Assembly: GCA_051453625.1 (NCBI GenBank)
Contig: JBOZIK010000001.1
Span: forward strand, 35,564,500-35,584,499
Length of the DNA stretch: 20,000 nt
From: Welwitschia mirabilis
Taxonomy: Eukaryota
Direction: 5' to 3'
Below, one piece after another: positions 2,966-20,000 of this stretch. Under the pieces are notes generated by a model. The model made no database searches. It was not told the origin of the DNA and worked only from the letters and a program-made list of their open reading frames with translations. Each line of letters starts with the position of its first letter. Position 1 is the stretch's first letter. The position numbers and the translations under genes are program-made.

Positions 2966-5880
2966 TTATAACATCCTCAAAAGGAATAATCTAAGAGAGA
3001 ATTTAGAAAATAATAGGGAGGAAGTCCTTCTCATTAAGGAGAACCTCAACATAAGTGCTTCTATCATGTTCAAGATTACATCAGAAGGTTGCTCGTATAT
3101 TTTCAACATTTGTTCATTAACTTTCAGAATTTCTTTAGTGGTTAAGTCAGAAATCTTAACAGAGCCATTAGAATGTACTTTCTTGACAAGGTAAGGGCTT
3201 AACCATTTTAAGCTCAACTTATTAGGTAGAAGATGTACTCTAGGATTATATAAAAAAACTAGTTGACCAGGTTCAAACTTCTTATGGGTTAACTTTTTAT
3301 CATGTTTGAACTTATTTTGGGCTTTATGAATAAGCCGATAATGTATAGCTCAAGTTTGTTTTTCATCTAAATGATATAATTGAGATAAATAATTTTTAAG
3401 ATTTTTTCTAAATTTACAAGATTAAGTTGATAGATAGAATGATAGGAATTATAACAAACATTAATAGGTAAAACACAAACTTTATTATATACAAGTTCAT
3501 AAGGTAAGAAACTAAGAGAATTATGTCAAGTAGTATGGTAAGCTCCAAGAACATCATTAAGTTTAAAATCCCAAGATTTCTCATTGGTAGAGACAAGTTT
3601 TTGAAGCATTTTTTTTTAAATTTCTCTATTGGCATTTTCAGCTTGTCCATTAGTTTGTGAATCATAAGCACAATCTACTCTATGTTCTATTCTAATGGAT
3701 AAAATAAGTTTTCTAAAAAGATGATTGATAAGATAAGTTCCCTAATCACTAATGATTATTTGAAAAAAGCCAAAACATTGAAAAATTTGAGTTCTAACAA
3801 AGTTACAAACAGTTTGGACATCATTTAAAGAAGTAGGAATTACTTAAACCTATTTAGTCACATAATTAATAGCCACTAAGATGTAGTTTTTATCCTTAGA
3901 AAGTGGTTTAGTTGGATCTGTAAAATTGATTCTCCAATCATTGAAAGATTCACATTTAATAATAGGTTTGAGAGGAATGTCTTGAGAATGTATAAGGCTA
4001 CCATAACATTGACATGCATCACATCTTCTAGCATAATTAAAAGAGTCTTAAAAAAGGTTAGGTCAATAAAATCCAGAGTAAAGAACTTTCATTGCTATTT
4101 TCTAATCACTAAAATGTTCATTACAAATCCTACCATGATAAACATAAATGATATTTACTTTTTCCCATTCTAGCACATATTTTCTCATGATTTGGTTTTT
4201 CATCTATAATAAATATGTGGTTCTATCTATTCATAATCACTTATTCTATGGAAAAAATATTTTCTCTGATTATAACTCCAATTATGTAGTGTTTTTAAAG
4301 TAATAAGATAATTGATAATATCAGAATACTAAGAAGTGAAATGATTTTAAGATATGATAAAAAGTTATTCATCTAGAAAAGAATCATTGATAGAAAGATC
4401 ATCAGAAGAAGAAAGGCATAATAAATAATCTACTACATTGTTATATTTTCCTATCTTATTTGTGATGGAAAGATGAAATTCTTACATTAAGAGAATTTAT
4501 CTAATCAATCTAGAATCAAAAACTTTCTTAGTTATTAAGTTTCTAATAGCTACATGATCTATGTAAATGTTTGTATGGAAGCATAAAAGATAATGTCTAA
4601 TATTATTGAGGTAAAAGATTATGGCTAACATTTCTCTCTCACTAGTTATATAATTTATTTAAGATTTGAATATTTCTTTATTATGATAAGATATAACTTT
4701 AAAATTATTTTCATATTTTTGTCCAAGCACCTCATCCACAACAATATTACTAGCATCACACATTATCTTAAAATCCTTATTCCAGTTGGATTAAATTACA
4801 ATAGGTGCGAAAGAGATTTTATGCTTAAATATATTGAAAGCAAGCTGATAAGATTTATTTCATTAAAATTTTTCTTTTTTCTCTAGTAACAAGTAAAGGA
4901 TTTTACAAATTTTAGCATTATCTTATATGAAGTGATGATAAAAATCATAATGTCCAAAAAAAGATTGAATTTATTTAACATTGGTTGGAGGAGTTAAGTT
5001 TTTAATGATGCTTACTTTTTTAGGGTCCATGCTAATTCCTTTATTAGAAATGTAATGATTTAGGACTATTCCATTATCAACAAAAAAAATATCTTTTTAT
5101 GATTTAAATAAACCATACTCTATGCATCTATCAAGGACTTTCTCTAATCTTTCTAAGATTTGGTTAAAGATTTTTCCAAAGATTGAGAATTAATCTATAA
5201 ATATTTCTATCGAATGCTCTAACATGTTAAAAAAAATACCCATAATAGCATGTTAAAAAGTTTCAAGAGTGTTTTAAAGTCCAAAAGGAATTTGTCTAAA
5301 AGTAAATGTTCTAAAAGGTGAAGTAAAATTTGTTTTAGCCTAGTATTCACTAGCTACACAAACTTGATTATAACCACTATATCCATCAAGAAAGTAATAA
5401 AAAGCATGATCTTGAATTCTATCAAGTATTTGGTCAAGAAGGTTATAGGTCAATGATCTTCTTTCATGACTTTATTAAGTTTTCTAAAATCTATGAACAT
5501 TCTTCATTTTCCATCTTTCTTTACTACCACAATTAAAGGATTAACCCATTCACTATCTGATATAGCATAAATGATCTTGGCATCCATTAAATTAATGATT
5601 TCCTTCTTTACTACTTATTTAAGTGCTAGATTTAATCTCCTTTATAGTTGTATAATAGGTTTTGAGTTTTTCTTAAGATAAATTTTATGCTAAGTAATAG
5701 ATAGAGGAATGTCTAATAAATCTTTATGATACAAAGTAGATACATTAACTTTAGAATTCAAAAGAGAGATTAAGATCAATTCTTATTTAGGAGAGAAGTT
5801 TTTATTGATTATTAAAGGTTTGTTTTGATCATTATATAAAAAAATATATTTCAATCTACTTAGATTCAGATTCAAATTAA
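2966..5880 (-). mobile_element. Degenerate Ty3/gypsy (Athila-like) pol: RT, RNase H, integrase
   Basis: RT: RRLNLALK*VVKKEIINLMDAKIIYAISDSEWVNPL...FIDFRKLN, YYFLDGYSGYNQ, IPFGL, IEIFID*FSI. RNase H: EREMLAIIF, YIDHVAIRNL...SRLIR*ILLM*EF. Integrase: YILVAINYVTK, IISD*GTY, and C-terminal KWLSPY..V..VHSNGSV...KVNEQMLKIY. The RT-RH-INT order is gypsy. Many stops and frameshifts. Confidence 0.92.
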
Positions 5881-6991
5881 GATTTTTAGTTTTTCTAAAA
5901 GATTCATCAAGATTGACCATTGTCTAAGATTGTCATCTAGATATTGTTGGGACTACTTTTCTCACAAATTTATATTTATGGTTTTGATTAATCTAGTTTT
6001 GCTTTGATTTTTGGATTTGGTTTAATACAATGAATATTATTATGTTACGCTCAAAATGTGAAAGGAGTTTAAAAACTCAAAATTTCATGATAAAATAATT
6101 TATTAAAAGTATGTTATAATCAAAACATATTGAGTATAGTTTGTATTGTAAATGGATTTACAAATAAAGTAAAAAGATGAATAAAATTTACTAGATGCTC
6201 ATATGGGTAAATACATGTATTTAAATAGCTAGCCCAAATGTGATATCATAAATGTATTAAGAATTTATCCAAACAATAGTGATGTAAATTTTGATCAGAG
6301 TTCAAAATTTAGATATAAATTTCTTTCATATCTAAGCTCTATGATGTTATTTAAAATCTATTCTGTGGATAACATTTCTATTAAATTTAAAAAAAATTAC
6401 TTTTCAATGTTATACAGGAAATAAAATAATAGAGGGAGTTGAAGATCTAACAATCAAAACTAGATTAATTACATAGAAAGACCTTAATCTCACTTTTAAA
6501 TAACAAAATAAGTTCTAGGTTGGAAATAAATTGAAAAATCTAGAATGAGTATCAAATATTGAGCTAAGAATTTTCTTATCATTATATTAGTTTTTTAATC
6601 TTCACTGATCTACTTGCATGCCTGTGATGCTGCTGTCCCTATGGCCTTGCCATTTACATGTGTTTTGTTGCTATTTTTCATCTATTTCTTTAATCTTCTA
6701 CCTTGCTCTAATGCACATTGTTTCGTCTCCTGTCTTAGCTCTACATTTTCCCTCTGTGATATTTCTTCATCTCTATGTTTTTTGGTTGTGCGTTTACCCC
6801 TCTGATTTGTGTTTTTTCCCCCTCAATTCTTGATTGTTCCACCCCCTGATGTATTTCCATTTTTTATTATTGTTCTTCCCTCAAGTAATGGCTGGGATGT
6901 AAGGATTGATTTCTTATTATGGTAATTTTATTGCTAAAATTAAAGATTATTAGTCTTTTTATGTAGCTAATCTGAAAAACTTGACAAATTG

Positions 6992-7497
6992 ATGTTGTGT
7001 CTATCGACATTTCCTCTTAAACGGGACTCCAAATGCTTTAACTTATTATCCTTTTCTTTACACTCTTCCCAGTCCCTAGGTTTGTGGATAGCTTTAGTAC
7101 CAACCAATCATTCTCATTTAACTGTGAATCATCCCTTGTAGTTTTCTTTGGAGAGATGCTCATTGATTTTATCCCTATAGTAGGGGATGCATCACTGGCT
7201 GATGCTCCTACCTTTAAGAAAGCTCCTGGGGATGCATCCACTAATGTTGATTCTACTTTCATTGGAAAGGTTTATGTAGATAAGTTTGGTTACATTCTTG
7301 CTGATATTTTGGATAAAAATAATATAAATAATAAAGGCATGGATTTTGATACTAGTGTTTAAACTACACTAGCATTTGTTACATTAAGATCTGATGGTGA
7401 GCAAGAATTCATGTTCTATAGAAATCAAAGTGTAGACATGCTACTTATAGAGTTGGAACTTGAAGTTAATCTCTTAAAAATGGCTAAAATTTTACAT
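6992..7497 (+). pseudogene. FRK: Processed fructokinase (pfkB family, FRK6/FRK7-like) pseudogene, copy 1, cut by the gap
   Basis: ESSLVVFFGEMLIDFIP...SLADAPTFKKAPG...FIGKV...FGYILADIL, then [28 protein letters not shown]...AKILH. No introns. Contains a stop and a 27-bp in-frame deletion. The 5' boundary (Ser-rich, transit-peptide-like) is uncertain. Confidence 0.9.
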
Positions 7498-7597
7498 NNN
7501 NNNNNNNNNNNNNNNNNNNNNNNNNNNNNNNNNNNNNNNNNNNNNNNNNNNNNNNNNNNNNNNNNNNNNNNNNNNNNNNNNNNNNNNNNNNNNNNNN
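7498..7597. other. Assembly gap (100 N)
   Basis: Run of exactly 100 N. Confidence 1.
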
Positions 7598-7782
7598 GAT
7601 ATGTGTTTTTTTTTTTTTAAGTCCTAGTTGTTCCATCCCCTGATGTATTCCCATTTTTTATTATTGTTCTCTCCTCAAGTAATGGTTGGGATGTAAGGAT
7701 TGCTTTCTTATTATGGTAATTTTATTACTAAAATCAAAGCTTATTAGCCTTGGTATGTAGCTAATCTGAAAAACTTGACAAA

Positions 7783-8624
7783 ATGATGTTATATCTATCG
7801 ACATTTTCTCTTAGACCGACCTTCAAATGCTTCAACTTGTTATCCTTTTATTTACACTCTTCTAAGTCCCTAGGTTCATGGATAGCTTTAGTACTAATCA
7901 ATCATTCTCATTTAACTTGAATCATCCCTTGGAGTTTTCTTTGGAGAGATGCTCATTGATTTTATCCCTACAGTAGGGGATGCATCACTGGCTGATGCTT
8001 CTACCTTTAAAAAATCTCTTGGAGATGCATCCACTAATGCTGTAGTTACAATTACAAGGTTAAATGGTGATTCTACTTTTATTAGAAAGGTTTTGGTTAC
8101 ATGCTTGCTGATATTTTAGATAAAAATAATATAAATAATAAAGGCATGCATTTTGATGCTGGTGCTCGAACTACACTAGCATTTGTTACATTAAGATCTG
8201 ATGGTGAGTATTAATTCATGTTCTATAGAAATCCAAGTGTAGACATGCTACTTACAGAGTTGGAACTTGAAGTTGATCTCTTAAAAAAGGCCAAAATTTT
8301 ACATTATGAGTCTATTAGCTTGATTACTAAACCTGGGAAATCTACATAATTAGTAATAATGAAAATGACAAAGGATGCTGGGGTTCTTCTTTAATATGAT
8401 CCTAATTTAAGGCTACCACTATGGCTATTAGTTGAGATAATCCATACAATTATTATAAGCATATGAGATAAATTAAACAACATAAGGAAAAATGAAAACG
8501 AGATCACATTTTAACTAAAGATGAAGACCCTTATGATGATGCTATTATGTGTAAATGTTTCCATTCCAATCTCAAGTTACTTCTTATGACAAAAGGCCAA
8601 GATGGATGTAGGTATTATACAAAG
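7783..8624 (+). pseudogene. FRK: Processed fructokinase (FRK6/FRK7-like) pseudogene, copy 2, 3'-truncated at YYTK
   Basis: GEMLIDFIPTVG...[28 protein letters not shown]...[17 protein letters not shown]...YDPNLRLPLW...EDPYDD...LKLLL.T.GQDGCRYYTK reads contiguously without introns. Several stops and a 13-bp frameshifting deletion. The C-terminal DTTGAGD motif region is missing. Confidence 0.92.
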
Positions 8625-8753
8625 AAGCGCTTTAGTTATTGATGGAATACCACTTGCAATGTCAGTATATGTTGAAATTTTATGAAGGTAATTGTAGTAG
8701 CTATTTTCTATCCTCATATTTTAGTAGATTATTGTAGTAATAGTAAGGGGAAG

Positions 8754-9117
8754 ATGATGCTTATTTCTTTTTGCTTTGATTTGTTTTTTAGAGATCTTAT
8801 GTAGTATAAGAAGCCTTCATTTTGACCATGTGATAAATCTTAAATTTGAAGATCATCATTTTGATACTAGTGTATCTTTGGATGACTCTCACAAAATTAC
8901 TATTAGAGTTATGTCTCCCTATGGAAATAGTATGCACTTTGTAAACTTAGTGAAAACAGGTTATTTCTCTTTTATAACTTATGAAGCAGGTAATTACATG
9001 ACATGCTTTTGGATGTATCATGCTCATTCTATAGTCATTTTTACCATTGATTTTGAGTCGAAGAATGAATTTCTTGCTAAATAGTAAATAAGAATTACCA
9101 AAAGGGAGGAAATTGAT
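8754..9117 (+). pseudogene. p24-delta (emp24/gp25L/p24, GOLD domain) N-terminal fragment
   Basis: Signal-like start, then SLHFD...SHKITIRVMSPYGNSMH...V.TGYFSF..YEAGNYMTCFW...TIDFE.K...AK**IRITKREEID. This matches the plant p24delta2 pattern SLRFD...SHKxTVRVTSPxG...GxFxF.AxEAGDYMACF...DFDW...AKDWSxVAKKGQID. The KCISE segment is deleted and the coiled-coil/TM half is absent. Confidence 0.82.
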
Positions 9118-9162
9118 AGCCTGATTTATTCTTCTATTCTTCTGCTCTTCCTTTGATGTGCG

Positions 9163-12100
9163 CTTTTAGATCTACAAGGTATTGGGGTTAAAATTGATGA
9201 TGAGTATTAAGCCATTATTTTCTTGCGTTCTCTACTGAATTCCTATGAGAATTTTATTGATAACATGTTGTACAATAGAGATAGTATATCTATTAGTGAT
9301 GTGAAGGATGCTATGTAGTCTAAGGAATTAAAGAGAAGAGTCTCTAACCCTAAAGAAGACATTGCAAAAGTAGGTCTATTTGTTAGTAGAGGGAGGAACA
9401 ATAAAAGAGATGGTGGAAGAAGAGGTAAGTTACATTCCAAATTGAGGGCTAAATCACTTCGATGTTTTCACTATAAAGAGAAAGGGTACATAAGGAAGAA
9501 TTATCCACAGTGGAAGAAGGAAAACAACAGAAAGGAATTAAATAGTAATAATAGTGCTGTAATAGTATAGGAAAGCTCTAATGAAGTAGAGAGAAGTGAT
9601 GTTCTGATTTTGCAAATACTTGGGTTTTGGACACTGGTGCATCGTATTACAAGACTTTTACACACAATTCATTTACTTCCTTCAAGTAGTGAAATGGCAG
9701 TGTAATGTTGGGTGATGATGGAGAGCTTAGTATCAAGGGCAATGATTTTATGCATATTGAGATGCATAATTGAATAATCAGAACATTTGATGCATGGTAT
9801 GTTTCTAATCTACAGAAGAATTTGATATCCCTAGGTATCTTAGACAAACAAGGATACAAGTGCTCTTGTGCAAATGGATAGCTGAAGGTTTCAAAGAATG
9901 CTATGATAGTAATGAAGGGTAAATTACAACATGAGATTTACATCTTAATAGATAATGTAGTGATGAGAATAGTGGAATAATGTGGTAACAAAATGATTGT
10001 ATAGAATTATGGCATTACAGATTGGATCACATGAGTGATAAAGGAATGACAATATTAAGAAAACAAGGATTATTAGATTGAGCAGAAACTAGAAAGTTCA
10101 AATTCAATGAAGCTTGTATTATGAAAAATCAATGCATAGTTAAATTTAGTTTTGGTAGACATACCACTAAGGATATCCTTGAGTATGCTCATTTAGATTT
10201 ATGGGATCCTTCTCCAATTGAGTCTCATGGCAGATGTAGGTACTTTATTACTTTCATTGATGACTACTCCAGAAAGGTTTAGTTGTATTTTATAAAATCC
10301 AAGGATGAGGTGTTTGGGTAGTTCAAGGAGTGGAAGATTATGGTTGAAAAATAGACTAAAAAACAAATCAAGACACTCAGAATAGATAACAGGTTGAAAT
10401 TCTATAATGCACTATTTGATGAGTTCTGTAAGAAATAAGGTATAGTGAGAAACCACACTGTATGGCATACACCATAGCAAAATGGAGTTATAGAATACAT
10501 GAACCAAACACTCATGCAGCATGCTCGATGCATGTAACTAAATGCTAGCTTGTTAAAGCAATTTTGGGTTGAAGCAGTTAACACTGCTTATTATCTGGTC
10601 TCCATCAACTGCAATTGATTTTGGCCTATCTATATAAGGGGTATGGTCTAGTCAAATTCTAATTATTTTAGCCTACCTATATTTAGTTATGCTACTTATG
10701 CTCATGTTAATTATGGTAAATTGGAGTTGAGGGTAATGAAATGCATACTTGTAGGATATGCAAATAGAGTTAAAGGGTATAGAATATGATGTAGTGAAAA
10801 TAATAAAACTCCAAAATTTATCATTAGTAGAGGTATTACTTTTGATGAATCTACTATGTTTGGTCAGAAAGAGGAGCTGAGTCATCATGTAGACAATAAA
10901 GATCAAAGTGCTAGCTAGAAGGTGGATCTTAAAATTAAAGTTCTAAAGAGGATTACAAAAAATCCTGTATAATAGCCTAGGAAAGAGGAAGAAGAATAAC
11001 AGAGTATAGCAGCAAGATCAAGGAGGGGAATTAAAAGACCTGTAAGGTATGCAGATTATGTTAGTATTGTTGATATTAACTCTATTGCATATGCCTTACT
11101 AGTGGAATAAAATATTGATTTTGATGAATCGAGATCTTACAAGGAGAAAATTGAAAGTAGAGAAGCATCTGAATGATTGATTGTAATAAATGAAGAATTA
11201 AGCCTCTTACAAAGAATAAAACCTAGGATTTAGTACCTCTACCAAAGGCTATGAAACCAGTATGATGCAAATGGATGTTTAAGAAGAAAGAAGGCATTCC
11301 TTGAGTTAAAGCACTTAGATTTAAGGCAAGTCTTATGGAAAAGGGTTTTTCATAGAAGGAAGGAATTTATTACCATAAGCTATTCTCATCAGTTGTAAAG
11401 CATAAAACTATTCAAGTTCTTCTAGCCATGATAAGTGCATTAGACTTGAAGTTGAAATAACTTGATATTAAAACTACATTCTTACATGATAACCTAAATG
11501 AGTAGATTTACATGTCATCCTTGATTTTGAAAAGGAAGATCATGTATGTTTGCTAAAGAAATACTTGTATGGTTTGAAGCAGTCTCCAAGGTAGTGGTAT
11601 AAGAGGTTTGATGCATTTATGATTTCTTATGGTTTTATGTGCAATCAATCTAATAATTGTATCTACTTTAAGAGACCTTTAGATGATTCCTATATATATT
11701 TGTTGCTATATGTGGATGACATGTTTATCGTAGCTAAGAACAAGGCTGAAATCAAAAATTTAAAGACGTTATTAAAAGGTGAGTTTGAAATGAAGGATTT
11801 GAATGCATCTAAGAAGATTTTGGGCATAGAAATTTCGAGAGATAGAAGTGTAGGTCTACTATATATATTTCAATAGAAGTACATTAAAAAGTTATTGCAA
11901 TCTTTCTAGATGTTTAATCTAAGATAGTTACTACTTCATTGGTAGCACACTTTAAACTTGATGCTTGTGCGATACCTAATACAGTTGAGAAGAAGGATTA
12001 CATGAGTACAATTCCTTACTCCAGTGTTATTGGAAGTATGATGTATGCCATGATATGTACTAGGCTTTATTTAGCTCATGTAATCAGTGTGGTAAGCAGG

Positions 12101-12678
12101 TTTATGAGTAATCTAGGAAAATCTTACTAGGAAGTAGTTAAATGGATTATGCGGTATTTGAAAGATACGAGAAATATCTACTTGGCTTATGGTGATAATA
12201 AATCTATTGGTAATTTGATTAACTATATAGATTCTGACTATGCCAGAGATCTTGAAAGGGAAGATCCTTAACATGCTATATCTTCACCCTATATGGATGT
12301 GTCATTAGCTAGATGGAAACACTTTAATCTATAGTTTTTTCATCTATCATAAAAGCTGAATACATGTAATTAACAAAAGGGGTTAAAGAAGGTATATGGT
12401 TGTATGGTCTTATTAATAGCTTAGGATTGAATGTTCAGAGATCTATCATCTATTATGGTAGTTAGAGTGCATTAGACATGACCAAGAATCAAGTCTATCA
12501 TGAGAGATTAAAACATATTGATGTCAACCTAAATTTCATTAGAGATGTTATAGAGGATAATAGGTTATTCATTAATAAGACAGCCATAGCAGAGAATCTA
12601 GTAGATATGTTGACAAAGCCATTACCTATAGAGAAGTTCAAGTATAGCTTGAACTTGGTGAATGTTCACATAGCATGA
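9163..12678 (+). mobile_element. Degenerate, 5'-truncated Ty1/copia gag-pol (Tork/Tnt1-like)
   Basis: gag LLDLQGIGVKIDDE..AIIFL.SL..SYENF; decayed zinc knuckle CFHYKEKGYIRKNYP (9463); protease WVLDTGAS (9621); LWHYRLDHMS; integrase HLDLWDP and FIDDYSRKV; RT LYGLKQSPR*WY and LLLYVDDM; RNase H DSDYA and YHERLKHIDV. The PR-INT-RT-RH order is copia. Confidence 0.95.
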
Positions 12679-12748
12679 GGCCCTAAGGGGCATGAATGGT
12701 AGGGGTGAAATTTCTCTTAGTTTCTAGTGATTTGAGACAATTCAAGTT

Positions 12749-12760
12749 AAGGTGGAGAAT
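12749..12760 (+). promoter_or_regulatory. Copia polypurine tract
   Basis: aaggtggagaat lies immediately before tgtt, ~70 bp after the pol stop. Confidence 0.85.
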
Positions 12761-13064
12761 TGTTAAGAACCTTGAATTTTAGTGAATTGTTATATGTATT
12801 TTCTTTTGATGAATGGTTCGAATCATTAAATGTATTTTATTTTGATGAACAATTCAAATAATTATATGTATTTTTTTCTAGAGTGACCCAAACCGGTTAG
12901 TTTATATATATGGTTCTAGGATTCATCATCTTGCAATAATTATTTTACTTGAGGAATAAGAAATCTCTCTTCCTACCCATGGACATAGGTCACATTGACT
13001 AAACCACATAAATCCTATGTATTCTCATTTATCTTCCATTTATATCTCCTTTTTTCTCATAAGA
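12761..13064 (+). repeat. Copia LTR (~304 bp)
   Basis: Starts TGTT after the PPT. Contains TATA-like tatatata at 12903-12910 and a Tork-like R/U5 motif cccatggacataggtcacattgactaaaccacataaat. Ends ataaga (decayed aaca) 2 bp before a PBS. Confidence 0.8.
12791..12877 (+). repeat. 36-bp tandem repeat (~2.3 copies) in the LTR U3
   Basis: atgtatttt recurs at 12794, 12830 and 12866. The units share ttttgatgaa...ttc.aat.atta. Confidence 0.8.
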
Positions 13065-13066
13065 AG

Positions 13067-13078
13067 TGGTATCAGAGC
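13067..13078 (+). promoter_or_regulatory. Primer-binding site for initiator tRNA-Met
   Basis: Exact TGGTATCAGAGC. Confidence 0.9.
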
Positions 13079-13280
13079 TAAGGTTATTGGCAGGTCTTAG
13101 GTTCAAGTCTTCCTAGTAGATTTTGGTTCATGTGAGTACTTGGCATGTGAATCGAGAGGGGAGATTATTATATATGTGATTTCCATGCCCAGCCTGACAA
13201 GTGAGTAAATGTAATGGATTCCAGTTTATCAGATTCCACTAATAGTCATGGCTTTTGATGTGATGGTAAAGGGTCCAATA
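13067..13280 (+). mobile_element. TRIM-like unit: PBS, ~99 bp internal region, PPT and ~115 bp LTR
   Basis: PBS at 13067 and a second PPT gagaggggaga at 13154-13164. The LTR-like segment runs from tatta (decayed tgtta, 13166) to ccaata (decayed ccaaca, 13280), contains ccactaatagtcatggcttttg and is unrelated to the copia LTR. No coding capacity. Confidence 0.6.
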
Positions 13281-13560
13281 CCTATGTCTATGATAAACAT
13301 GAATTTCTCTAGTGGAGTGCCCATTTCCATTTCCATGAAGTAAGGCATAATTCCAAGTGACACTGCAGATATGAAAAGATTTGAAGAGACTACCAAATAG
13401 TGCTTTCTCTCATGATTCCTTTTGTCGATGGATGCATGACATGCTGCATCATGTACAAAGGGATCATAGATTTATTCCTTATGGGAATTGAAATAGAGGA
13501 TGAACGGACTATTTGTAGAGTGATAGTAGATTAGCATCGTTAATTTTATTTTTAGTTTTA
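13281..13560 (-). pseudogene. A1-family (nepenthesin-like) aspartic protease N-terminal fragment, ending at the first catalytic motif
   Basis: Minus strand reads KLTMLIYYHSTNSPF...SHKE*IYDPFVHDAACHASIDKR...SAVSLGIMPYFMEMEMGTPLEKFMFIIDIG, matching LIHRxSPxSPF...DxxR...SGxSxGxGxYFMxxxxGTPxxxFxxIxDTG. Confidence 0.78.
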
Positions 13561-13589
13561 CTATTTTATGTTAATAAGACAATGGTCTC

Positions 13590-14065
13590 AAAGAAGTCCA
13601 AGCATCAAGAGATAATGAAAATCGATATACATCTCGTCTCCATTGAAAGTGCTCTTGTTTTTTTTTATTTGATCACAATGATCACATACTTCAATGATTT
13701 GTTATTAAGACATATATATGGATGCTATATTAGCCTTATCTTATCAAGGGTAGTATCAGAATGCAGTGGAGCTAGTCTGTACTTATACATCATGGGAGTT
13801 CTTAGATGAAAGTGTCAGTTAACAAAGCTTGCTGATAACTCAATGTGATAATTTATGTACAAATATTAGTAAGATAAAGAAATGGGGTTCTATGGTTATT
13901 TTGAATTCTCTTAATTTTCTTCTAATTGTAGTTGATGCAGCTCCAAAGGAAACAACACATGCAATGCATTCATTTATTAATAATTCTATTTCGAATGAGT
14001 ATGACAGTTTCTTGGGGTTTGGTAAAATGCTCCATTTGAATTTAGTAGGAATTAACAATCTAATG
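13590..14065 (+). pseudogene. ACC1: Homomeric acetyl-CoA carboxylase central-region fragment
   Basis: With frameshifts: IESALV..FDHNDHILQ*FVIKTYIWMLY*PYLIKGSIRMQW...SWEFLDE...KKWGSMVILNSLNFL..VVDAAPKETTH...GKMLHLNLVGINNLM. Recalled ACC1: VEDALVGLFDHSDHTLQRRVVETYIRRLYQPY.VK.SVRMQW...SWEFLEE...RKWGAMVIIKSLQFL...GNMMHIAIVGINNQM. The 5' boundary (13590-13640) is uncertain. Confidence 0.88.
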
Positions 14066-14090
14066 GAGTAGAAACAAATAAGATATTGAC

Positions 14091-15078
14091 ATGGATAGGA
14101 AGAGACACAAGCTTAGATGGCACAGAAATAAAACATGAATTTTTCTCGTTTTACTTACTCTTTAGTATGATGCTCAACTGTTGCTTTTCAAATGCTTTAC
14201 TAGAAATGAAGTCAGTGTAACATCTTCTGTACTTACTTGTAAATGTGCAAAGGTTATTTTTTCTTTAATATTAATTTGACAAGATGGAAGATTAGCAAAA
14301 ATTAGGAAAGAATGGATACTTTTGGGTTCATTAGTAATTTTAGAACTTTTGACTACTATTTATGCTTTGTAGAATAGCATGTTACAACTTTCTTATCGAA
14401 ATCTTGACTTTCTTATCTTCATAATAATTAACCAGACAAAGTTACTTTTCATCACTTTTTTTATGTAATTCATTTTATGGCATAAGTAGTTACTACAACA
14501 AATTGAGGCTCTATTTCTATTTATTGTAATGACTTTACTTCTCAGTATAGGAGAGGAAACTAGTCATGGTTCTAAAGACATTGATCGTGAGTGAGAAATT
14601 TATTTTTGATGTCATAATTATGATTATTAATTCTATATTATCTAGAATTACATCCTTACTTTACCAATGGGTATCACAGGTTAAGAAAAGAAGCTTATAG
14701 TTAATGACCATTGTGATGTCTGTAGTTAAATGTTTGTATATGTTGGTAATCATACTGAAATTACCTAATGGCAAAGCTATAAGAGAGAAAGTTCTCCTTT
14801 TTTCCCCTCTTTTTTGTGCTAGTTGGACACTTGCAACTCTTATCCCTATTTTTATGAATGAAATTGAAGGGATTTTAGTTGTAATTATTACTATGTATTC
14901 TAGTGGTATATGGAAGGGATTTGTTATTGTATCTCCTCTAATTGTGATAGCCTTCTTATAGTTTATATTTGATGGTATACCTTCTTTTATGTGCATACTG
15001 ATGGCCTTACCTCTTATTATTACCAACATCATTATTTACCAAAAGTACCCCTATAAAGAAAAAGAAAATAAATTATAA
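14091..15078 (+). pseudogene. ROCK1: Full-length processed ROCK1-type nucleotide-sugar (UDP-GlcNAc/GalNAc) transporter pseudogene, copy 1
   Basis: LLTL*YDAQLL...VTSSVLTC...KEWILLGSL...IYAL*NSMLQLSYRNLD...NQTKLLF...LLSIGE...QWVSQVKK...LMT..MS...WT.ATLIP...GILV...KGFVIVS.LIV.AFL*F.FDG.P...ALPL.I..I.IYQKYPYKEK. This is colinear end to end with recalled ROCK1. Intronless, followed by a 3'UTR-like stretch and an A-rich tract (~15185-15213). Confidence 0.9.
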
Positions 15079-15284
15079 GACATATCACTTTACTAGCTTA
15101 CAACACTAGAATGTGTTGGTTCTACTTTCTCCTTTACTTTTTAATGTATCACAAAATTTTATTTAATATCCTAGTTTTCTTTTTAAAAAAATTAAATAAG
15201 AGGATAAATAAAAGGGAGAAAGGCTAATGAAGTAAAAGGATGATGCATAAAAAGTGGAAATGTAGAATTTATATATTATAGTTA

Positions 15285-15298
15285 TTCCCCTTTTGATG
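15285..15298 (-). promoter_or_regulatory. Possible SIRE-type PPT-like motif
   Basis: Reverse complement catcaaaaggggaa resembles the Sirevirus (c)atcaaaaagggggag motif. The duplicate at ~17244 is more decayed. Confidence 0.25.
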
Positions 15299-16203
15299 TA
15301 AAGAAAAATATGAGCTTGACATCAAAAATATAAGAAAAAGGAATAAATGTCTTAATGAAGGTTTACATATGCAAGTCATTTTACTATAATGATGAGGATC
15401 CAAAATAATGAAAAGTGACTCAATTAAATGGTAAAGACATAATATGAATAAGCTTTAGACATGCATATGAGATAATTAAAAAAATGTATCATGGATGATG
15501 ATGAAAGATGATAAAAGAATAGGTTCAATTGTATGAAACAGAAATGAGTTGAAATAACTATATGGTAAAAAGGAGTTGGGTATAAAAAATGGATAAGTTA
15601 ACTAAGAAGTGAAATTATCCTTAGATAAGTTTGTAAGTAAATGCAAAAAATGACTTTAAAATAAGTAATTTTAAATATTAATAAAGATTAGGTAAAAATA
15701 GACAAACAAAGGCATGAAGAAGATTGATTACAATGTCTCTAAATACTAACCTAGCAATGTATATTGGTATAAGTCATAAAACTATTTAATACCATTAATA
15801 ATGGTTTAATGCTAAATAACACAGAGTTTCATGTAATTAGTACAATGATTATAAGAATGTTTATGGTCATTTTGCAAAGTATTAATATAATATTAGGATT
15901 ATAACTCAATCCAATCATTGATTGTAATGGTAAATGACATCTTACTAACTTATCATTCAATAATCAATATATTCTGAATTCTTACAAAATCATAGCTTTG
16001 GAGTTATGGAAAATCAAGTAAATGGAATTTTTAAAAGACATCATCTATCATGATGTGAGGAGTGTAACCACTGTCAAAAGCATAAGGATCCATAAGCCAA
16101 ATCCAGATCATAACCAACTAATACTTTGGTGGAGTTCCCATGGCTACCATATCACACTACCAAAGGTGCCTCTTGGGAATATTTACCCTAGTGTGCTTGC
16201 AGT

Positions 16204-16303
16204 NNNNNNNNNNNNNNNNNNNNNNNNNNNNNNNNNNNNNNNNNNNNNNNNNNNNNNNNNNNNNNNNNNNNNNNNNNNNNNNNNNNNNNNNNNNNNNNNN
16301 NNN
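16204..16303. other. Assembly gap (100 N)
   Basis: Run of exactly 100 N. Confidence 1.
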
Positions 16304-17062
16304 TAGGAAAGAATGGATACTTTTGGGTTCATTAGTGATTTTAGAACTTCCAACTACTATTTATGTTATAGCTTTCTTATTGAAATCTTAACTCTCTTAT
16401 CTTCACAATGATTAATCAGATAAAGTTACTTTTCATCACTCTTTTCATGCACTTCATTTTATGGTAAAATTAGTTACCACAACAAATTGAGACTCTATTT
16501 CTATTCATTATAGCGGCTTTACTTCTCAGTATAGGAGAGGAAACTAGTTATGGTTCTAAAGACATTAATTGTGAATGTGAAATTCATTTTTGATGTTATA
16601 CTTATGATTATTGATTCTATATTATCTGGAATTTCATCCTTACTTTGCCAATGGGCATCACAAGTTAAGAAAAGAAGCTTATAGTTAATGACCATTATGA
16701 TGTCTGTAGTTAAATGTTTGTATATGTTGGTAATCATACTTAAATTACCTAATGGCAAAGCTATAAGAGAGAAAGTTTTTCTTTTTTCCCCTCCTTTTTA
16801 TGCTAGTTGGACACTTGCAACTCTTATCCCTATTTTTACGAATGCAATTGAAGGAATTTTAGTTGGAATTATTACTACGTTATCTAGTGGTATATGGAAG
16901 GGTTTTGTTATTGTATCTCCTCTGATTGTGATAGCCTTCTTATAGTTTATATTTGATGGTATACCTCCTTTTATGTACACACTGATGGCCTTACCTCTCA
17001 TTATCACCAACATCATTATTTATCAAAAGTACCCCTATAAAGAAAAAGAAAAGAAATTATAA
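16304..17062 (+). pseudogene. ROCK1: Processed ROCK1-type pseudogene, copy 2 (5' part lost in the gap)
   Basis: Runs from RKEWILLGSL to IYQKYPYKEKEKKL*. Shares stops with copy 1 and has a private 17-bp deletion. Confidence 0.9.
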
Positions 17063-17989
17063 GAGATATCACTTTACTGGCTTGCTACATTAGAATGTAT
17101 TGGTTATACTTTCTCCTTTACTTTTCAATGTATCACAAAATTTCATTTGATATCCTAGTTTTATAAATAAAATGGAGAAAGGCTAATGAAGTAAAAGGAT
17201 GATGCATAAAAAGTGGAAATGTAGAATTTATATATTATAGTTGTCCCCATTTTGATGTAAAGCAAAATATGAGCTTGACATAAAAAATATAAGAAAAATA
17301 AACATGTGTCTTAATCAAGGTTTACATATGCAAGTCATTTCACTATAATGATGAGGATCCAAAATGATGAAAAGTGACTCGATTAAATGGTAAAAACATA
17401 ATATGAATAAAATTTAGACATGCATATGAGAGAATTAAAAAAATGTATCATGGATGGTGATGAAAGATGATAAAAGAATAGGTTCAATTGTATGAAACAG
17501 AATTGAGTTGAAATAACTATATGGTAAAAAGAAGTTGGGTATAAAAAATGGATAAGTTAACTAAGAAGTGAAATTATCCTTAGCTAAGTTTGTGAGTAAA
17601 TGCAAAGAATGACTTTAAAATAATTAATTTTAAGTATTAATAAAGATTATGTAAAAAAAGACAAACAGAGGCATGAAGGAGATTGATTACAATGTTTCTA
17701 AATACCAACCTAGCAATTTCTATTAGTATGAGTCATAAAACTATTTGATACTATTAATAATGGTTTCATGCTAAACAACATAGAGTTTCATTTAATTAGG
17801 ACAATGATTATAAAAATGTTTATAGTCATTTTGCAAAGTATTACTATAATATTAGGATTATAACTCAATCCAATCAATGACTGTAATGGTAAATGACATC
17901 TTACTAACTTATCAGTTAATAATCAATATATTCTCAATGCTTGTGAAATCATAGATTTGGATTTATGAAAAATCAAGTAAATGGAATTT

Positions 17990-18420
17990 TTAGAAGACAT
18001 CATCTATCATGATGTGAGGTTTGTAACCAGTATCAAAAGCATAAGGATCCATAGGCCAAAGCTAGATTGTGACCATCTAATACTTCAGTGGAGTTCCCAT
18101 GGCTACCATATCACACTACCAAAGGTGCCTCTTAGGAATATTTACCTTGGTGTACTTGCAGTAGGACATCATGATTTTTTTTTTGGGTGGTGTATGGTAT
18201 TGATATTTTATTTTAACTTGAATTCCCTTTTTTTAATTTTTTTGAACATTAATTAATCATTAGAATGATAAATTATAAGATTCACTAGTAAAGACAAGTA
18301 TTGAATATAATACAAATTAATATTAGGACAACAAAACATGAGATATTGAATGTCATAGACATAGGAATGTCTTAAGATTGGGTGAAATCTAATATTACCA
18401 CTAGAAATATCCCAAAGTAG
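17990..18420 (-). mobile_element. Non-coding fragment of an element related to the Athila-like element at left
   Basis: Two colinear homology blocks to 2470-2910, in the same orientation. Confidence 0.55.
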
Positions 18421-20000
18421 AAAAAAGTACATTTATAAAAACTCAAATGTGGTTTAACATAAGACCAAACAAAATCAATAATCAAATAAATAAATAACTT
18501 TAATTAAGAAATGCTATTAAGGAGTCATTTAGATAAGGTCCAAGGAAAGACTTACCTCTTGATCAAAGGGTCCTCCTACTCAATTTATTCTATCATGCTT
18601 ATAGTACTATGATAAGTATTAATGTAATATTAACTATTATTGATTGACACTAAGTTTTCTTAGCATTGAAATTAATAACTGAATGAAGTCATTAGAAATG
18701 CACTTCTCTGTAAAGTAAGTATTTGACCACTTAGTATTTAACTTATTATAAGAATGTATCCAAACATCATGTAATAAAATGAAATAAATTGATTGAAGAT
18801 AAATGTTGATGATGAGTTTAAGAAGAACTAAGCATAGAATGGAAATGGAAAAGTACAAATGAATTATTGAAGAAAAATTAGTGGGTAAAACACACTATCA
18901 TTAGATAGTAGAATAGATGTTTTGCATAAAAATGTAGCATTAAAGGATTTATGCAAAAGTGTAAGCTATAGGAGAGAGTGAATGGATGGTATCATAACAA
19001 AGGTAAGTATAGTATGCTATCATCGTCATCATCATCTTCTACAAGGGGAGCCACATGAAATGGAATGTCAATTAGAGAAGCTCGATAAGGGATAAAACAA
19101 TATCTACTAAGAATAAATGGCACTTAATAATTACCAACATATAACTCTACTAGAATCTAACGCATATGGTCAATCATGAGCTGTAAAACTCAAACAAACA
19201 AAGAAAACATGAAACCTATGTAACATATAAAAACATGCTATTCTAAATAATAAATAATTGCATAGATGTATGTCACATTTTATTTTGAATGAAATAGTAA
19301 TAATAAATGCATGAGACGAGTAATGAAAACATAGTAAAAAGGATGTGAATTATGAATTTTATTGATAGTATGGTCAAAGATAGAATGATTTTATTGGTTC
19401 TTTATCCTTAATGTCATTCAGATCTTTGAGTTTGTATATTTATTTATTAAATGTCTATGATATGATGAATGATCCTAGTCAATTTAGTGAAAATTTTAAA
19501 ATTTTCTTAATTAAGTTTACTTTCAAGATAGATTTATATATACTATAAGATCAAGGATTAACATGTTTATTGTATGTATCACTTATTCATTTCTAATAAA
19601 GTTGTGTAAGTTGTAGTGATTTGATCTTTTATTCATCTAGAGTTTCTAATTAAGCAACTCGTGTTTCTCTTTTCACTTAGATAATTCTAGATCTTTAACT
19701 AAGATCCTCAATTTGGGGATCTAAATTTAGATTAGTAAAATTTCTTTAATGCCATAAACTAATTGGAATGGGGTTGTTCCCATGGCACTTTTCACTATGA
19801 TATGATATGCCCATAATGCAAGAGGTAATTTTTCATGATAATATTTTAGATAGTAATTTCTTAAGGTAGCTTATTGTTGCGGTATGTATTTGTGCAATAG
19901 TTCACGTTTCACTTTCAATCTTATTAATTATAAATAAGATGCAAAATATAACATGCTAGTATAGACAGAGTGATCCGAATGTCGTAATTCTGTCGAAGGC

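Follow-up and report, generated by a model that had tools for sequence, protein, structure and literature searches.

Four host-mRNA fragments around a truncated copia element in Welwitschia mirabilis: a probable fossil of reverse-transcriptase template switching

Host-gene fragments

The DNA considered here, referred to as the window, is a 20,000-nt stretch of the Welwitschia mirabilis assembly GCA_051453625.1 (contig JBOZIK010000001.1, positions 35,564,500-35,584,499, forward strand); positions below are counted from its first letter. Its central part carries fragments of four host genes in two blocks, with a decayed retroelement between them. The left block opens with a fructokinase (FRK, PfkB family) retro-fragment at 7890-8636 on the + strand, which starts in the N-terminal region, ends about three quarters of the way along the protein, is free of introns and is interrupted by frameshifts and stop codons. 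That this is a fructokinase, as a first-pass annotation had proposed, is borne out by the Pfam PfkB profile (E 6.3e-13 at 8092-8427) and by solved fructokinases in the PDB (E 2.9e-11; 15 sequences at E<=0.01). The adjoining interval 8430-8702 matches weakly (E 0.1), with three matches at E<=1, each of them to fructokinase-like 2. RNA reads 85-95% alike cover 7885-8745; 26 reads continue beyond the FRK breakpoint at 8625, and 21 reads carry, before 7918, a loose end that is visibly homologous to 7890-7917. Cassava FRK genes, in the part of the source consulted, have 4-7 exons (PMC5713366).

Next to it lies a p24/EMP24 (GOLD-domain) retro-fragment at 8754-9118 (+), which begins at the start ATG and stops near residue 120, both ends having been placed by eye, and which includes a 108-codon open frame at 8758-9084. 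Pfam EMP24_GP25L aligns over profile positions 34-100 at 8869-9069 with E 1.9e-4 and 22 bits, short of the cutoff of 25.9, and all 30 Atlas matches belong to the EMP24 set (score 0.91), so that the p24 assignment stands at the level of the family. The first Atlas cluster for this fragment bears the name p24beta2. A relative's RNA reads extend over 8746-9032. On either side the fragment is bordered by a short, unassigned spacer (8637-8753 and 9119-9168).

In the right block, a fragment of the acetyl-CoA carboxylase (ACCase) central region occupies at least 13662-14066 (+) and breaks off mid-exon. An exhaustive HMMER search returned eight matches at E<=0.001, with ACC_central present in seven of the eight, and when these seven proteins were used as tblastn queries every one of them matched 13722-14086 (E 3e-18 to 7e-12), which upholds the proposed identity. 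The Pfam ACC_central profile itself (positions 321-357) aligns at 13662-13775 with E 0.18. There is a frameshift at 13787, behind which 49 of 56 RNA reads have one extra G, and 31 RNA reads continue beyond the breakpoint at 14066. In the genome-predicted fragments P0123 and P0127 homology ceases at ACC_central position ~342, although 32 and 48 residues, respectively, lie upstream of it; the match at our locus crosses this position, suggesting an intron that is missing here.

Directly adjacent, at 14067-15223 (+), is a near-complete processed copy of an mRNA for a ROCK1-type UDP-GlcNAc transporter, consisting of a 24-nt leader, an ATG at 14091, the whole coding sequence, a stop codon at 15076-15078 and a 3' UTR of ~106 nt. 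The coding sequence has suffered eight in-frame stops and one frameshift. The ROCK1 identity proposed earlier is secure: 211 proteins match at E<=0.001 (best 2.3e-36), many of them named ROCK1 or CMP-sialic acid transporter 5, the nearest being those of gymnosperms, and tblastn places residues 5-329 of 331 at 14088-15069 without an intron (E 8e-83). The A-rich tail that had been noted after ROCK1 is likewise present, at 15185-15223 behind the 3' UTR; in the second copy of the locus, described below, this tail is shorter by 25 nt.

The four host fragments are thus identified, colinear with mRNA and alike in orientation; six oriented parts are all on the + strand, the host fragments and the copia element running in the same direction. 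The earlier reading of the fragments as intronless parts of an RNA-derived, multi-gene chimera is sustained by the unbroken ROCK1 and PfkB matches (PfkB profile positions 3-134 are uninterrupted in the second copy) and by reads from poly(A) RNA that lie, at 85-95% likeness, on FRK, p24 and ACCase; none of these three is involved in any of the 15 joints listed. Near-zero spacing, also claimed, is seen between the end of ACCase at 14066 and the ROCK1 ATG at 14091, and between FRK likeness that extends to at least 8625 and the p24 ATG at 8754. Three of the four fragments begin at or near an mRNA 5' end (p24 at its ATG, ROCK1 24 nt ahead of its ATG, and FRK in its N-terminal region), and the 3' sides are broken within coding sequence at 8625-8636, ~9118 and 14066. 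Such 5' starts combined with internal 3' breaks are the pattern expected if a reverse transcriptase reaches the 5' end of one template and then lands inside another RNA. Read overhangs at the switch points are two only, of 30 nt each.

The fifth cargo of the first-pass annotation, an aspartic protease on the - strand, could not be upheld, which leaves four host fragments in place of the five announced. No Asp or TAXi match was obtained in six frames of 13081-15300 at E<=10, in a search whose HMMER filters drop most matches above ~0.1, and the Atlas search with the supposed 80-aa ORF gave no usable match. Part of the supposed motif (- strand, ~13246-13338), namely 13246-13278, overlaps multi-copy LTR-end sequence. 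What follows, 13281-13661, is a single-copy stretch (X1 depth 4.47) with no confirmed family, with no Pfam match in six frames and with no RNA reads within 13338-13624; its right part, from ~13560, presumably belongs already to the ACCase fragment.

The retroelement between the blocks

The copia element that had been proposed between the cargo blocks is indeed there. Its 5'-truncated Ty1/copia internal region (9169-12678, +) contains many stop codons and comprises the C-terminal third of gag, the protease barrel, integrase, reverse transcriptase and RNase H, in the domain order of Ty1/copia elements and all on the + strand. Pfam matches at 9169-11918 are to Retrotran_gag_2 (profile 112-170 only), Pol_BBD, gag_pre-integrs, rve, SH3_retrovirus and RVT_2; RNase H has no separate Pfam match. 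Because gag begins at profile position 112 of 172, some 50 nt past the p24 fragment, host sequence here replaces part of the element's open reading frame.

To the right of the internal region we read from the sequence a polypurine tract (12749-12759, +), a single LTR (12761 to about 13065, +) with a 36-bp tandem repeat at 12790-12874, and, directly after it, a 12-nt primer-binding site (PBS; 13067-13078, +). The same 12-mer also follows the LTR ends of other copies, seen as loose ends of contigs from public runs, and it is the conserved PBS of Cassandra elements (PMC7215508). The single LTR of the copia element thus has a polypurine tract before it and a PBS after it, the 5' LTR and the start of gag being missing; neither self-BLAST nor alignment revealed a second copy of this LTR in the 20-kb window. 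Beyond the PBS, 13079-13278 (+) is very abundant LTR-element sequence, made up of a short internal piece, a purine tract (13154-13164) and an LTR-like piece of ~113 nt that ends at 13278, at most 3 nt from the end of its family's LTR. In the public runs X1, X5 and X8 (X1 may be the assembly's own sample) its summed depth is 1721, 4170 and 4052, and 96, 75 and 59 contigs continue after 13278 with a few bases and then the PBS 12-mer, while 13 X8 contigs carry the purine tract and the LTR start before 13183. Alignment detected no likeness between this LTR piece and that at 12761-13065.

Assembly context, copy number and decay

As had been stated, the train lies in a gap-free contig, with zero N in 7783-15213. 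This contig is flanked by 100-N gaps at 7498-7597 and 16204-16303, and at both gaps self-BLAST finds the end of the preceding contig recurring as the start of the following one: 6804-7497 is 86.9% identical to 7598-8304 (613 matches, 67 mismatches, of which 48 are transitions, and 41 gap columns), and 14303-16203 is 89.9% identical to 16304-18162 (1709 matches and 150 mismatches, 103 of them transitions). Both gaps conceal unmerged overlaps with a second copy, ~90% identical, and the scaffold strings two versions of the locus end to end over stretches of N. The left part of the second copy (6804-7497, +), which ends exactly at the gap, holds the upstream flank and the first 121 FRK codons in a less decayed state, with Pfam PfkB at 7135-7497 (E 1.4e-9, profile 3-134) and solved sugar kinases and fructokinases matched at E 1.6e-8. 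Its right part (16304-18162, +) begins exactly after the gap with ROCK1 residues 82-320, as placed by tblastn, and continues into the tail and the same downstream flank. The upstream flank of the FRK fragment (7598-7889, +), which aligns to 6804-7095, is of low to middle copy number, with summed depths of 18.7 (X1), 48.3 (X5) and 66.3 (X8), and no RNA reads lie over it. The downstream flank (15224-16203) is rich in repeats and ends in a very high-copy one: successive X1 bins, the first of them at 15060-15346, have depths of 53.9, 172.2, 1330.4 and 10339.2, and 16130-16203 is similar to 2541-2613.

The expectation that the junctions would be spanned by reads stood for the joints within each block, which are bridged by contigs from the runs. 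One X1 contig covers 7598-9310 with six differences and another 13251-15214 with seven; an X5 contig (organism B, a second organism label) covers 13484-14191 with none and bridges the ACCase/ROCK1 joint, and an X8 contig covers 13380-13833 with four. In the middle of the train, none of the contigs listed spans 9310-13251, so the link between left and right blocks comes from the assembly contig alone.

Both cargo blocks have single-copy depth (3.4-5.5 in X1), as against 54-402 summed over copia in the same run. The view that the fragments are carried by a transposable element is not supported by these data, the host fragments sitting outside the retroelement and not between its LTRs, with no LTR pair or inverted termini found to bound the cargo. 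No LTR pair was found within the 20-kb window, and none of its eight inverted pairs (26-39 nt, 71-81%) brackets the train. Neither carrier termini, in the form of LTR pairs or inverted repeats, nor a target-site duplication were found around the train in the window; for the whole unit and the right block, comparison of 15170-15300 with six candidate left borders yielded only common 8-9-mers at chance level, and decay may have erased a duplication. Single-copy cargo lacking an LTR pair, inverted termini and a target duplication does not describe a mobile, multi-copy carrier. In the runs and the window, copies with the same junctions did not turn up at different sites; one extra copy, ~90% alike, has the same flanks, and since flanking DNA is common to both sides, this copy points to DNA duplication or a second haplotype and not to retrotransposition.

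The observed/expected CpG ratio is 0.13-0.36 in every block, and relative to the RNA of its relatives the window has A/T in place of G/C at 245 positions, with the reverse at 37. In one poly(A) RNA run, 7 of 698 RNA reads are at least 95% like the locus, which is not visibly transcribed in that run. The locus is old and silenced.

Origin of the locus

We consider the locus to be probably a fossil of reverse-transcriptase "copy-choice", that is, a set of template-switched chimeric retrocopies that later decayed, and not a working element. Template switching had been put forward at the outset and is the most economical origin; we infer it as the joining mechanism, along with the order of events and their number, be it one, two or more. 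Host mRNAs would have been reverse-transcribed and fused via template switching into two chimeric retro-blocks of one orientation. In the left block, the minus strand of the copia cDNA would have left the copia RNA inside gag, at profile position 112, and continued on p24 mRNA to its 5' end and then on fructokinase mRNA towards its 5' end; in the right block, copying would have begun at the poly(A) tail of ROCK1 mRNA, reached the 5' end of that mRNA and gone on with an internal piece of ACCase mRNA. The blocks would meet at LTR-element termini, with polypurine tract, LTR, primer-binding site and short LTR end. The locus would then have been inserted a single time, with no amplification of the whole; it would later have undergone duplication as DNA, or else exist as two diverged haplotypes, and, having been methylated, it would have eroded through C-to-T decay.

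Some features weigh against such copy-choice retrocopies. The host fragments lie outside the element, whereas described LTR-mediated retrocopies lie between two LTRs; copia has only one LTR; no target-site duplication surrounds the whole unit or the right block; and 13281-13661 has no confirmed family. The right edge of the transposable-element block is moreover an LTR terminus, which fits integration or a cDNA end better than a switch in mid-template and makes at least two events likely. It is improbable that a single 7.4-kb cDNA arose in one uninterrupted run of reverse transcriptase that took in at least five RNAs. Such a run would have been primed on the poly(A) tail of ROCK1 mRNA and would have jumped into ACCase mRNA and then onto LTR-element RNA, where end-to-end strand transfer would have rebuilt an LTR flanked by polypurine tract and PBS, before it left gag for p24 mRNA and finished on fructokinase mRNA; if true, LINE-like initiation and retrovirus-like copy choice would be combined in one locus. 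An unlikely but coherent alternative is nesting, in which a LINE-type retrocopy running from FRK and p24 through ACCase and ROCK1 to poly(A) came first, copia and a short-LTR element entered later, and a deletion removed the 5' LTR and gag start of copia. The A-rich tail at the far right end, the complete ROCK1 copy and the end of the transposable-element block within 3 nt of the LTR terminus at 13278, like that of an integrated element, all suit this order of events, and multi-template LINE chimeras have been described, in the part of the source consulted (PMC2104539). However, no target duplication of either the LTR element or the retrocopy was found, a 5' LTR remnant is absent at 9100-9175 (the alignment score falls among those of shuffled sequences), no remaining p24 was detected right of the transposable-element block (no EMP24 match in six frames at E<=10), and the deletion must have ended neatly beside p24.

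The model of the first-pass annotation, in which the 7.4-kb train is a mobile unit transposed whole as a Bs1-like LTR element, Helitron or Pack-type element, seems to us very unlikely. A second copy at ~90% identity exists for both ends, a 366-nt X5 contig matches 13439-13802 at ~90%, and multi-gene capture by such elements is known from the portions of the literature consulted (PMC13317346; PMC5131818), but the X1 depths of cargo and copia differ as given above, the second copy shares flanks beyond both ends of the train, as a DNA duplicate or haplotype would, LTR pair and flanking inverted repeats were not found, and the fragments lack introns, unlike those in typical DNA-transposon capture. 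Hardly more credible is a patchwork made at the DNA level, whether from loose host and copia cDNA pieces ligated as filler in the repair of a chromosome break or from independent processed pseudogenes joined by deletions. The outer ends without target duplication or element termini, the fragmentary copia and the short unassigned spacers (8637-8753, 9119-9168 and 13281-13661) would be at home in such a patchwork; against it, the six oriented pieces agree, for which the chance is 1 in 32 over five relative orientations, and three fragments start at an mRNA 5' end, a regularity not expected of random ligation. Finally, the block join through repetitive copia, or the whole contig, might be a mosaic of repeat copies or haplotypes. 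The overlaps left unmerged at both gaps (0.7 and 1.9 kb, 87-90% identical), by which the scaffold mixes two versions of the locus, and the unspanned interval in the middle would fit an assembly artefact of this sort. We judge it extremely improbable, given the copy-specific single-copy contigs inside copia (X1 9320-9801 with no differences, X1 10549-10824 with one and X8 10444-10714 with none), the 284 X1 records at least 99% alike, and the bridged junctions of each block.

Relation to known systems

The contention that a multi-gene unit of this kind is unusual was overstated, at least against the portions of the sources consulted: multi-gene LTR-mediated retrocopies have been described (PMC5131818), and maize Bs1 holds three host gene segments in an LTR element (PMC13317346; PMC5131818). 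In those portions, the LTR-mediated retrocopies of Tan et al. (2016; PMC5131818) include ones that bring together at least two genes, among them a mouse locus with four genes and an Alu. They resemble our locus in that partial, intron-free mRNA copies are fused to internal retrotransposon sequence with part of an open reading frame replaced, several parent genes are combined and the copies are often partial. They differ in lying between two LTRs, with microsimilarity at the joints, whereas here the host pieces are on the outer sides of a 5'-truncated, one-LTR element and one host copy has its own A-rich tail. Bs1, as far as the consulted text goes, is likewise a plant LTR element of low copy number with spliced segments of unrelated host genes; it keeps both LTRs, its one to five copies have their switch points in common, and it is both transcribed and translated, in contrast to the present locus with no LTR pair, many stops (eight in ROCK1) and few RNA reads (7/698) at least 95% alike.

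Chimeric retrogenes made by LINEs, such as the tripartite Magnaporthe pseudogene, also join copies of cellular RNAs head to tail, in one orientation and with a terminal poly(A), and the ACCase-ROCK1-A-tail block fits this pattern, in the part of the source consulted (PMC2104539). Of the features of a LINE-type processed pseudogene, a poly(A) tail is present (15185-15223) and a target-site duplication is not found; Pfam searches of the locus found no LINE sequence. In contrast to the LINE chimeras in the same partial source (PMC2104539), the landing sites are inside mRNAs and not at RNA 3' ends. Pack-MULEs, Pack-CACTA elements and Helitrons (PMC13317346) share the close packing of fragments from several unrelated genes, and capture of gene fragments is said to be very common in gymnosperm genomes, with ~400,000 fragments per genome (PMC13477047). 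These elements, however, capture genomic DNA, with element termini bounding the cargo (PMC13317346), whereas our locus has no introns, no flanking inverted termini and single-copy depth.

The stretch 12749-13278 reads, in order, polypurine tract, LTR, PBS, short internal piece, purine tract and short LTR. Complex LTR arrays, reportedly set out by Sabot and Schulman in 2007, are said to have one LTR with a polypurine tract before it and a PBS after it. The order at our locus resembles the shared-LTR junction of two elements in Cassandra tandem arrays (PMC7215508); in contrast to such arrays, no likeness is detectable here between the two LTR pieces. No 5S-type RNA was found, and the element is therefore not Cassandra.

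The locus, dead and unamplified, is a silent pseudogene cluster of low copy number; clusters of this kind have been described before, and nothing about it is new in kind. It carries an annotation lesson, in that such patchworks yield false gene fragments. Its value is that of a clean, checkable example of reverse transcriptases shuffling unrelated gene pieces in an AT-rich, heavily decayed plant genome, in which the three of four pieces that start at an mRNA 5' end allow the direction of the template jumps, and their order, to be read off.

Host-gene fragments

The locus at 7783–15213 carries copies of four unrelated genes, made from processed mRNA and oriented as the copia element that they flank. 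Fragment searches employed a six-frame translation with stop codons read as X. The first-pass annotation had called a fructokinase (FRK) on the + strand, and this is supported by a Pfam match to PfkB at 8092–8427 (+, E 6.3e-13) and by the best solved-structure matches of the fragment and of its second copy, which are fructokinases and fructokinase-like proteins (E 2.9e-11 and E 1.6e-8, respectively); against solved structures, the adjoining 8430–8702 gives a weak match (E 0.1). RNA reads overhang the alignment before 7918 with sequence visibly homologous to 7890–7917, and the FRK copy therefore extends further 5' than 7918. The + strand p24 call holds at the level of the EMP24 family: the Pfam match to EMP24_GP25L at 8869–9069 (+, E 1.9e-4, 22 bits) lies below the curated 25.9, and the 108-codon p24 frame groups with EMP24 clusters in 30 of 30 Atlas matches (score 0.91).

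On the right, the + strand ACCase call is supported by an exhaustive HMMER search with eight matches, seven of them short ACC_central proteins (five of these seven at Pfam's cutoff), and by tblastn, in which all seven match 13722–14086 (E 3e-18 to 7e-12). P0121, the top entry of that HMMER list, is a repetitive protein and was set aside as unrelated. An extension of ACCase leftwards to 13662 gives a weak Pfam match (E 0.18), and we presume that plant ACCase likeness probably continues to about 13560.

ROCK1 (+) is the most complete of the copies. The fragment finds 211 proteins at E<=0.001 (best 2.3e-36), many of them named ROCK1 or CMP-sialic acid transporter 5, with the best matches in Taxus and Cryptomeria. 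A 331-residue tblastn query (E 8e-83) places residues 5–176 at 14088–14591 and residues 177–329 at 14593–15069, a layout from which it follows that the whole coding sequence is present without an intron, as had been proposed, with one frameshift and eight in-frame stops. The sequence has its ATG at 14091, its stop at 15076–15078, a 3' UTR of ~106 nt and an A-rich tract at 15185–15223. A solved-structure search with the ACCase, ROCK1 and p24 fragments gave no useful match.

A fifth proposed fragment, an aspartic protease on the – strand, drops out: it has no Pfam match at E<=10 and no Atlas match, and its motif lies partly on multi-copy LTR sequence. Other identities considered for the neighboring sequence fared no better. 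A copia gag start at 13214–13280 (+), suggested by its place after a primer-binding site (PBS), has no Pfam support, the stretch being an abundant LTR end, and a p24 split by the transposable element, with its C-terminal part at 13281–13600, finds no EMP24 match and no RNA reads there; the membrane-anchor-like part within 13281–13600 probably belongs to ACCase. An Rfam search of the window found no family and no 5S-type RNA.

RNA evidence and decay

About one quarter of a poly(A) run yielded 698 aligned reads, of which 257 are 90–95% alike to the locus and 434 less than 90%. Only seven of the 698 reach at least 95%, and their source is therefore expressed relatives and not the locus itself. 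These reads cover FRK, p24 and ACCase, and ROCK1 thinly. Since 26 of them continue past 8625 and 31 past 14066, these two positions mark breaks within the parents' mRNAs. The G whose absence at 13787 causes a frameshift is present in 49 of 56 reads.

At 245 places a G or C in the RNA corresponds to an A or T in the window, as against 37 in the reverse direction, and CpG observed/expected is 0.13–0.36 in every block, genes and transposable elements alike. Cargo and transposable elements alike have undergone long methylation-type decay. Such strong one-way decay across the contig 7598–16203 fits the AT-rich character of the 20-kb window (GC 0.22–0.37).

The retroelement block

The Ty1/copia series at 9169–11918 (+, Pfam) comprises gag, matched over profile positions 112–170 only, followed by Pol_BBD, gag_pre-integrs, rve, SH3_retrovirus and RVT_2. 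On the 3' side of the RNase H region there follow a polypurine tract (12749–12759), an LTR from 12761, and a 12-nt PBS (13067–13078) one base beyond the LTR end. With a polypurine tract before it and a PBS after it, the LTR at 12761 is therefore not a simple 3' LTR. Cassandra elements carry the same 12-mer as their conserved PBS (PMC7215508). The LTR at 12761 also holds a 36-bp tandem repeat (12790–12874, 2.4 copies, 83% match), and related copies in the runs have deletions of 71–120 nt within 12807–12943.

The 200 bases after 13078 come from a family that is far more abundant (summed depth 1721, versus 265 for the LTR, in X1, a public sequencing run). Beyond 13278, the sequence continues into a few bases and the PBS in 96, 75 and 59 contigs, respectively, from three runs, and upstream of 13183 there is a purine tract and LTR start in 13 contigs of the public run X8. 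These continuations on both sides identify 13166–13278 as a short LTR of ~113 nt, ending at most 3 nt from the terminus. Comparison of the copia LTR, the short LTR piece, 9100–9175 and 7598–7900 revealed no likeness above shuffled controls.

Other repeats lie nearby. A decayed Ty3/gypsy-type element occupies 3661–4853 (–), with Pfam matches to RT_RNaseH (E 1.1e-17) and RT_RNaseH_2 at 4476–4853 and, below cutoff, to rve at 3661–3936 (E 1.2e-4); a second integrase-like tail is visible by eye at ~19700–20000 (–). A very high-copy repeat at 15921–16203, whose contigs sum to depths of 10339, 27869 and 3284 across three runs, stands at three places in the window, the other two being 2541–2622 and 18089–18171, in copies 74–82% alike.

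Contigs, copy number and a second version of the locus

N runs cut the window at 2778–2787, 7498–7597 and 16204–16303, and 7783–15213 lies, as first described, inside an N-free contig (7598–16203). Parts of the stretch occur in 13 public runs from four studies under two organism labels, four of which were aligned to the window at 85% likeness. X1 contigs cover 7598–9310 (FRK, p24 and the copia joint; 6 differences, depth 2.97) and 13251–15214 (TE edge to A-tail; 7 differences, depth 3.6), an X5 contig from organism B covers 13484–14191, across the ACCase/ROCK1 joint, and X8 contigs cover 13380–13833, 14110–14564 and 15209–15454 (4, 1 and 0 differences). The proposed junctions FRK/p24/copia, TE edge to A-tail and ACCase/ROCK1 are thus bridged, by assembled contigs as opposed to raw reads, and X1 may be the source sample itself; no contig listed from the four runs spans 9310–13251. 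The X5 contig, 708 nt long, has 0 differences despite lying in a decaying pseudogene, and the two organism labels must denote either one lineage or very close relatives.

Summed X1 depth is 3.4–3.8 over 7885–9032 and 3.6–5.5 over 13338–15059, so the cargo is single- or low-copy; copia reaches 54–402 and the contig end up to 10339. The flank upstream of FRK (7598–7884) is low- to mid-copy (summed depth 18.7–66.3 over three runs) with no RNA reads, and may belong to an unrecognised element that bounds the locus on its left.

When the window is compared with itself, the 694 bases that run up to the second gap (6804–7497) match the 707 that follow it (7598–8304) at 86.9%, and the 1901 that run up to the third (14303–16203) match the 1859 beyond it (16304–18162) at 89.9%. 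In the second copy the PfkB profile (positions 3–134) is unbroken at 7135–7497, and the A-rich tract is 25 nt shorter. Transitions make up 48 of 67 mismatches in the left repeat and 103 of 150 in the right, independent indels are also present, and the gap edges are the exact bounds of both repeats. From these features we conclude that 6804–7497 and 16304–18162 are real second versions of both locus ends, not sequencing noise, strung end to end by scaffolding. The scaffold seems to line up two diverged versions of a single locus one after the other, across both 100-N gaps, and at such sites the assembly may overcount genes or repeats.

Origin of the locus

Three of the four fragments start at or near an mRNA 5' end, and their 3' breaks fall within coding sequence. 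A reverse transcriptase that reached the end of one RNA and then landed inside another would leave this pattern. In the left block (FRK–p24–copia), p24 replaces gag at profile position 112, and the block therefore matches LTR-mediated retroposition. The right block (ACCase–ROCK1–A-tail) contains a complete copy of ROCK1 followed by the A-tail, and resembles a LINE-type chimeric retrocopy. We favor, with somewhat better than even confidence, chimeric retro-blocks made by reverse transcriptase at one locus that is not itself mobile.

The first-pass annotation had instead seen cargo carried by a transposable element. The TE block stops at an LTR terminus, however, copia has one LTR only, the second copy has the same outer flanks, and a search of the locus for target duplications and inverted termini found none. 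These same features argue for more than one event. A tandem or circularly permuted single element was likewise discarded, the sequences after the A-tail and before FRK being unrelated and the comparison of the copia LTR, the short LTR piece, 9100–9175 and 7598–7900 having revealed no likeness. A history of nested insertions, with no switch from copia to mRNA, strikes us as rather improbable, and we give smaller shares still to a mobile carrier, a patchwork made by repair and an artefact of assembly.

The first-pass annotation had also held that five spliced cargos in one unit would be unusual. Multi-gene retro-chimeras have, however, been published before: Tan et al. (2016; PMC5131818) describe discontinuous LTR elements to which partial mRNA copies are joined, several genes being combined (up to four plus an Alu), and Bs1 is a plant precedent with three genes. 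The LINE-type chimeric retrocopy described in PMC2104539 resembles the right block here. A survey of gymnosperm genomes (PMC13477047) puts the processed pseudogenes and captured gene fragments of each genome in the hundreds of thousands. The Welwitschia locus is a neat worked example, ordinary in principle.
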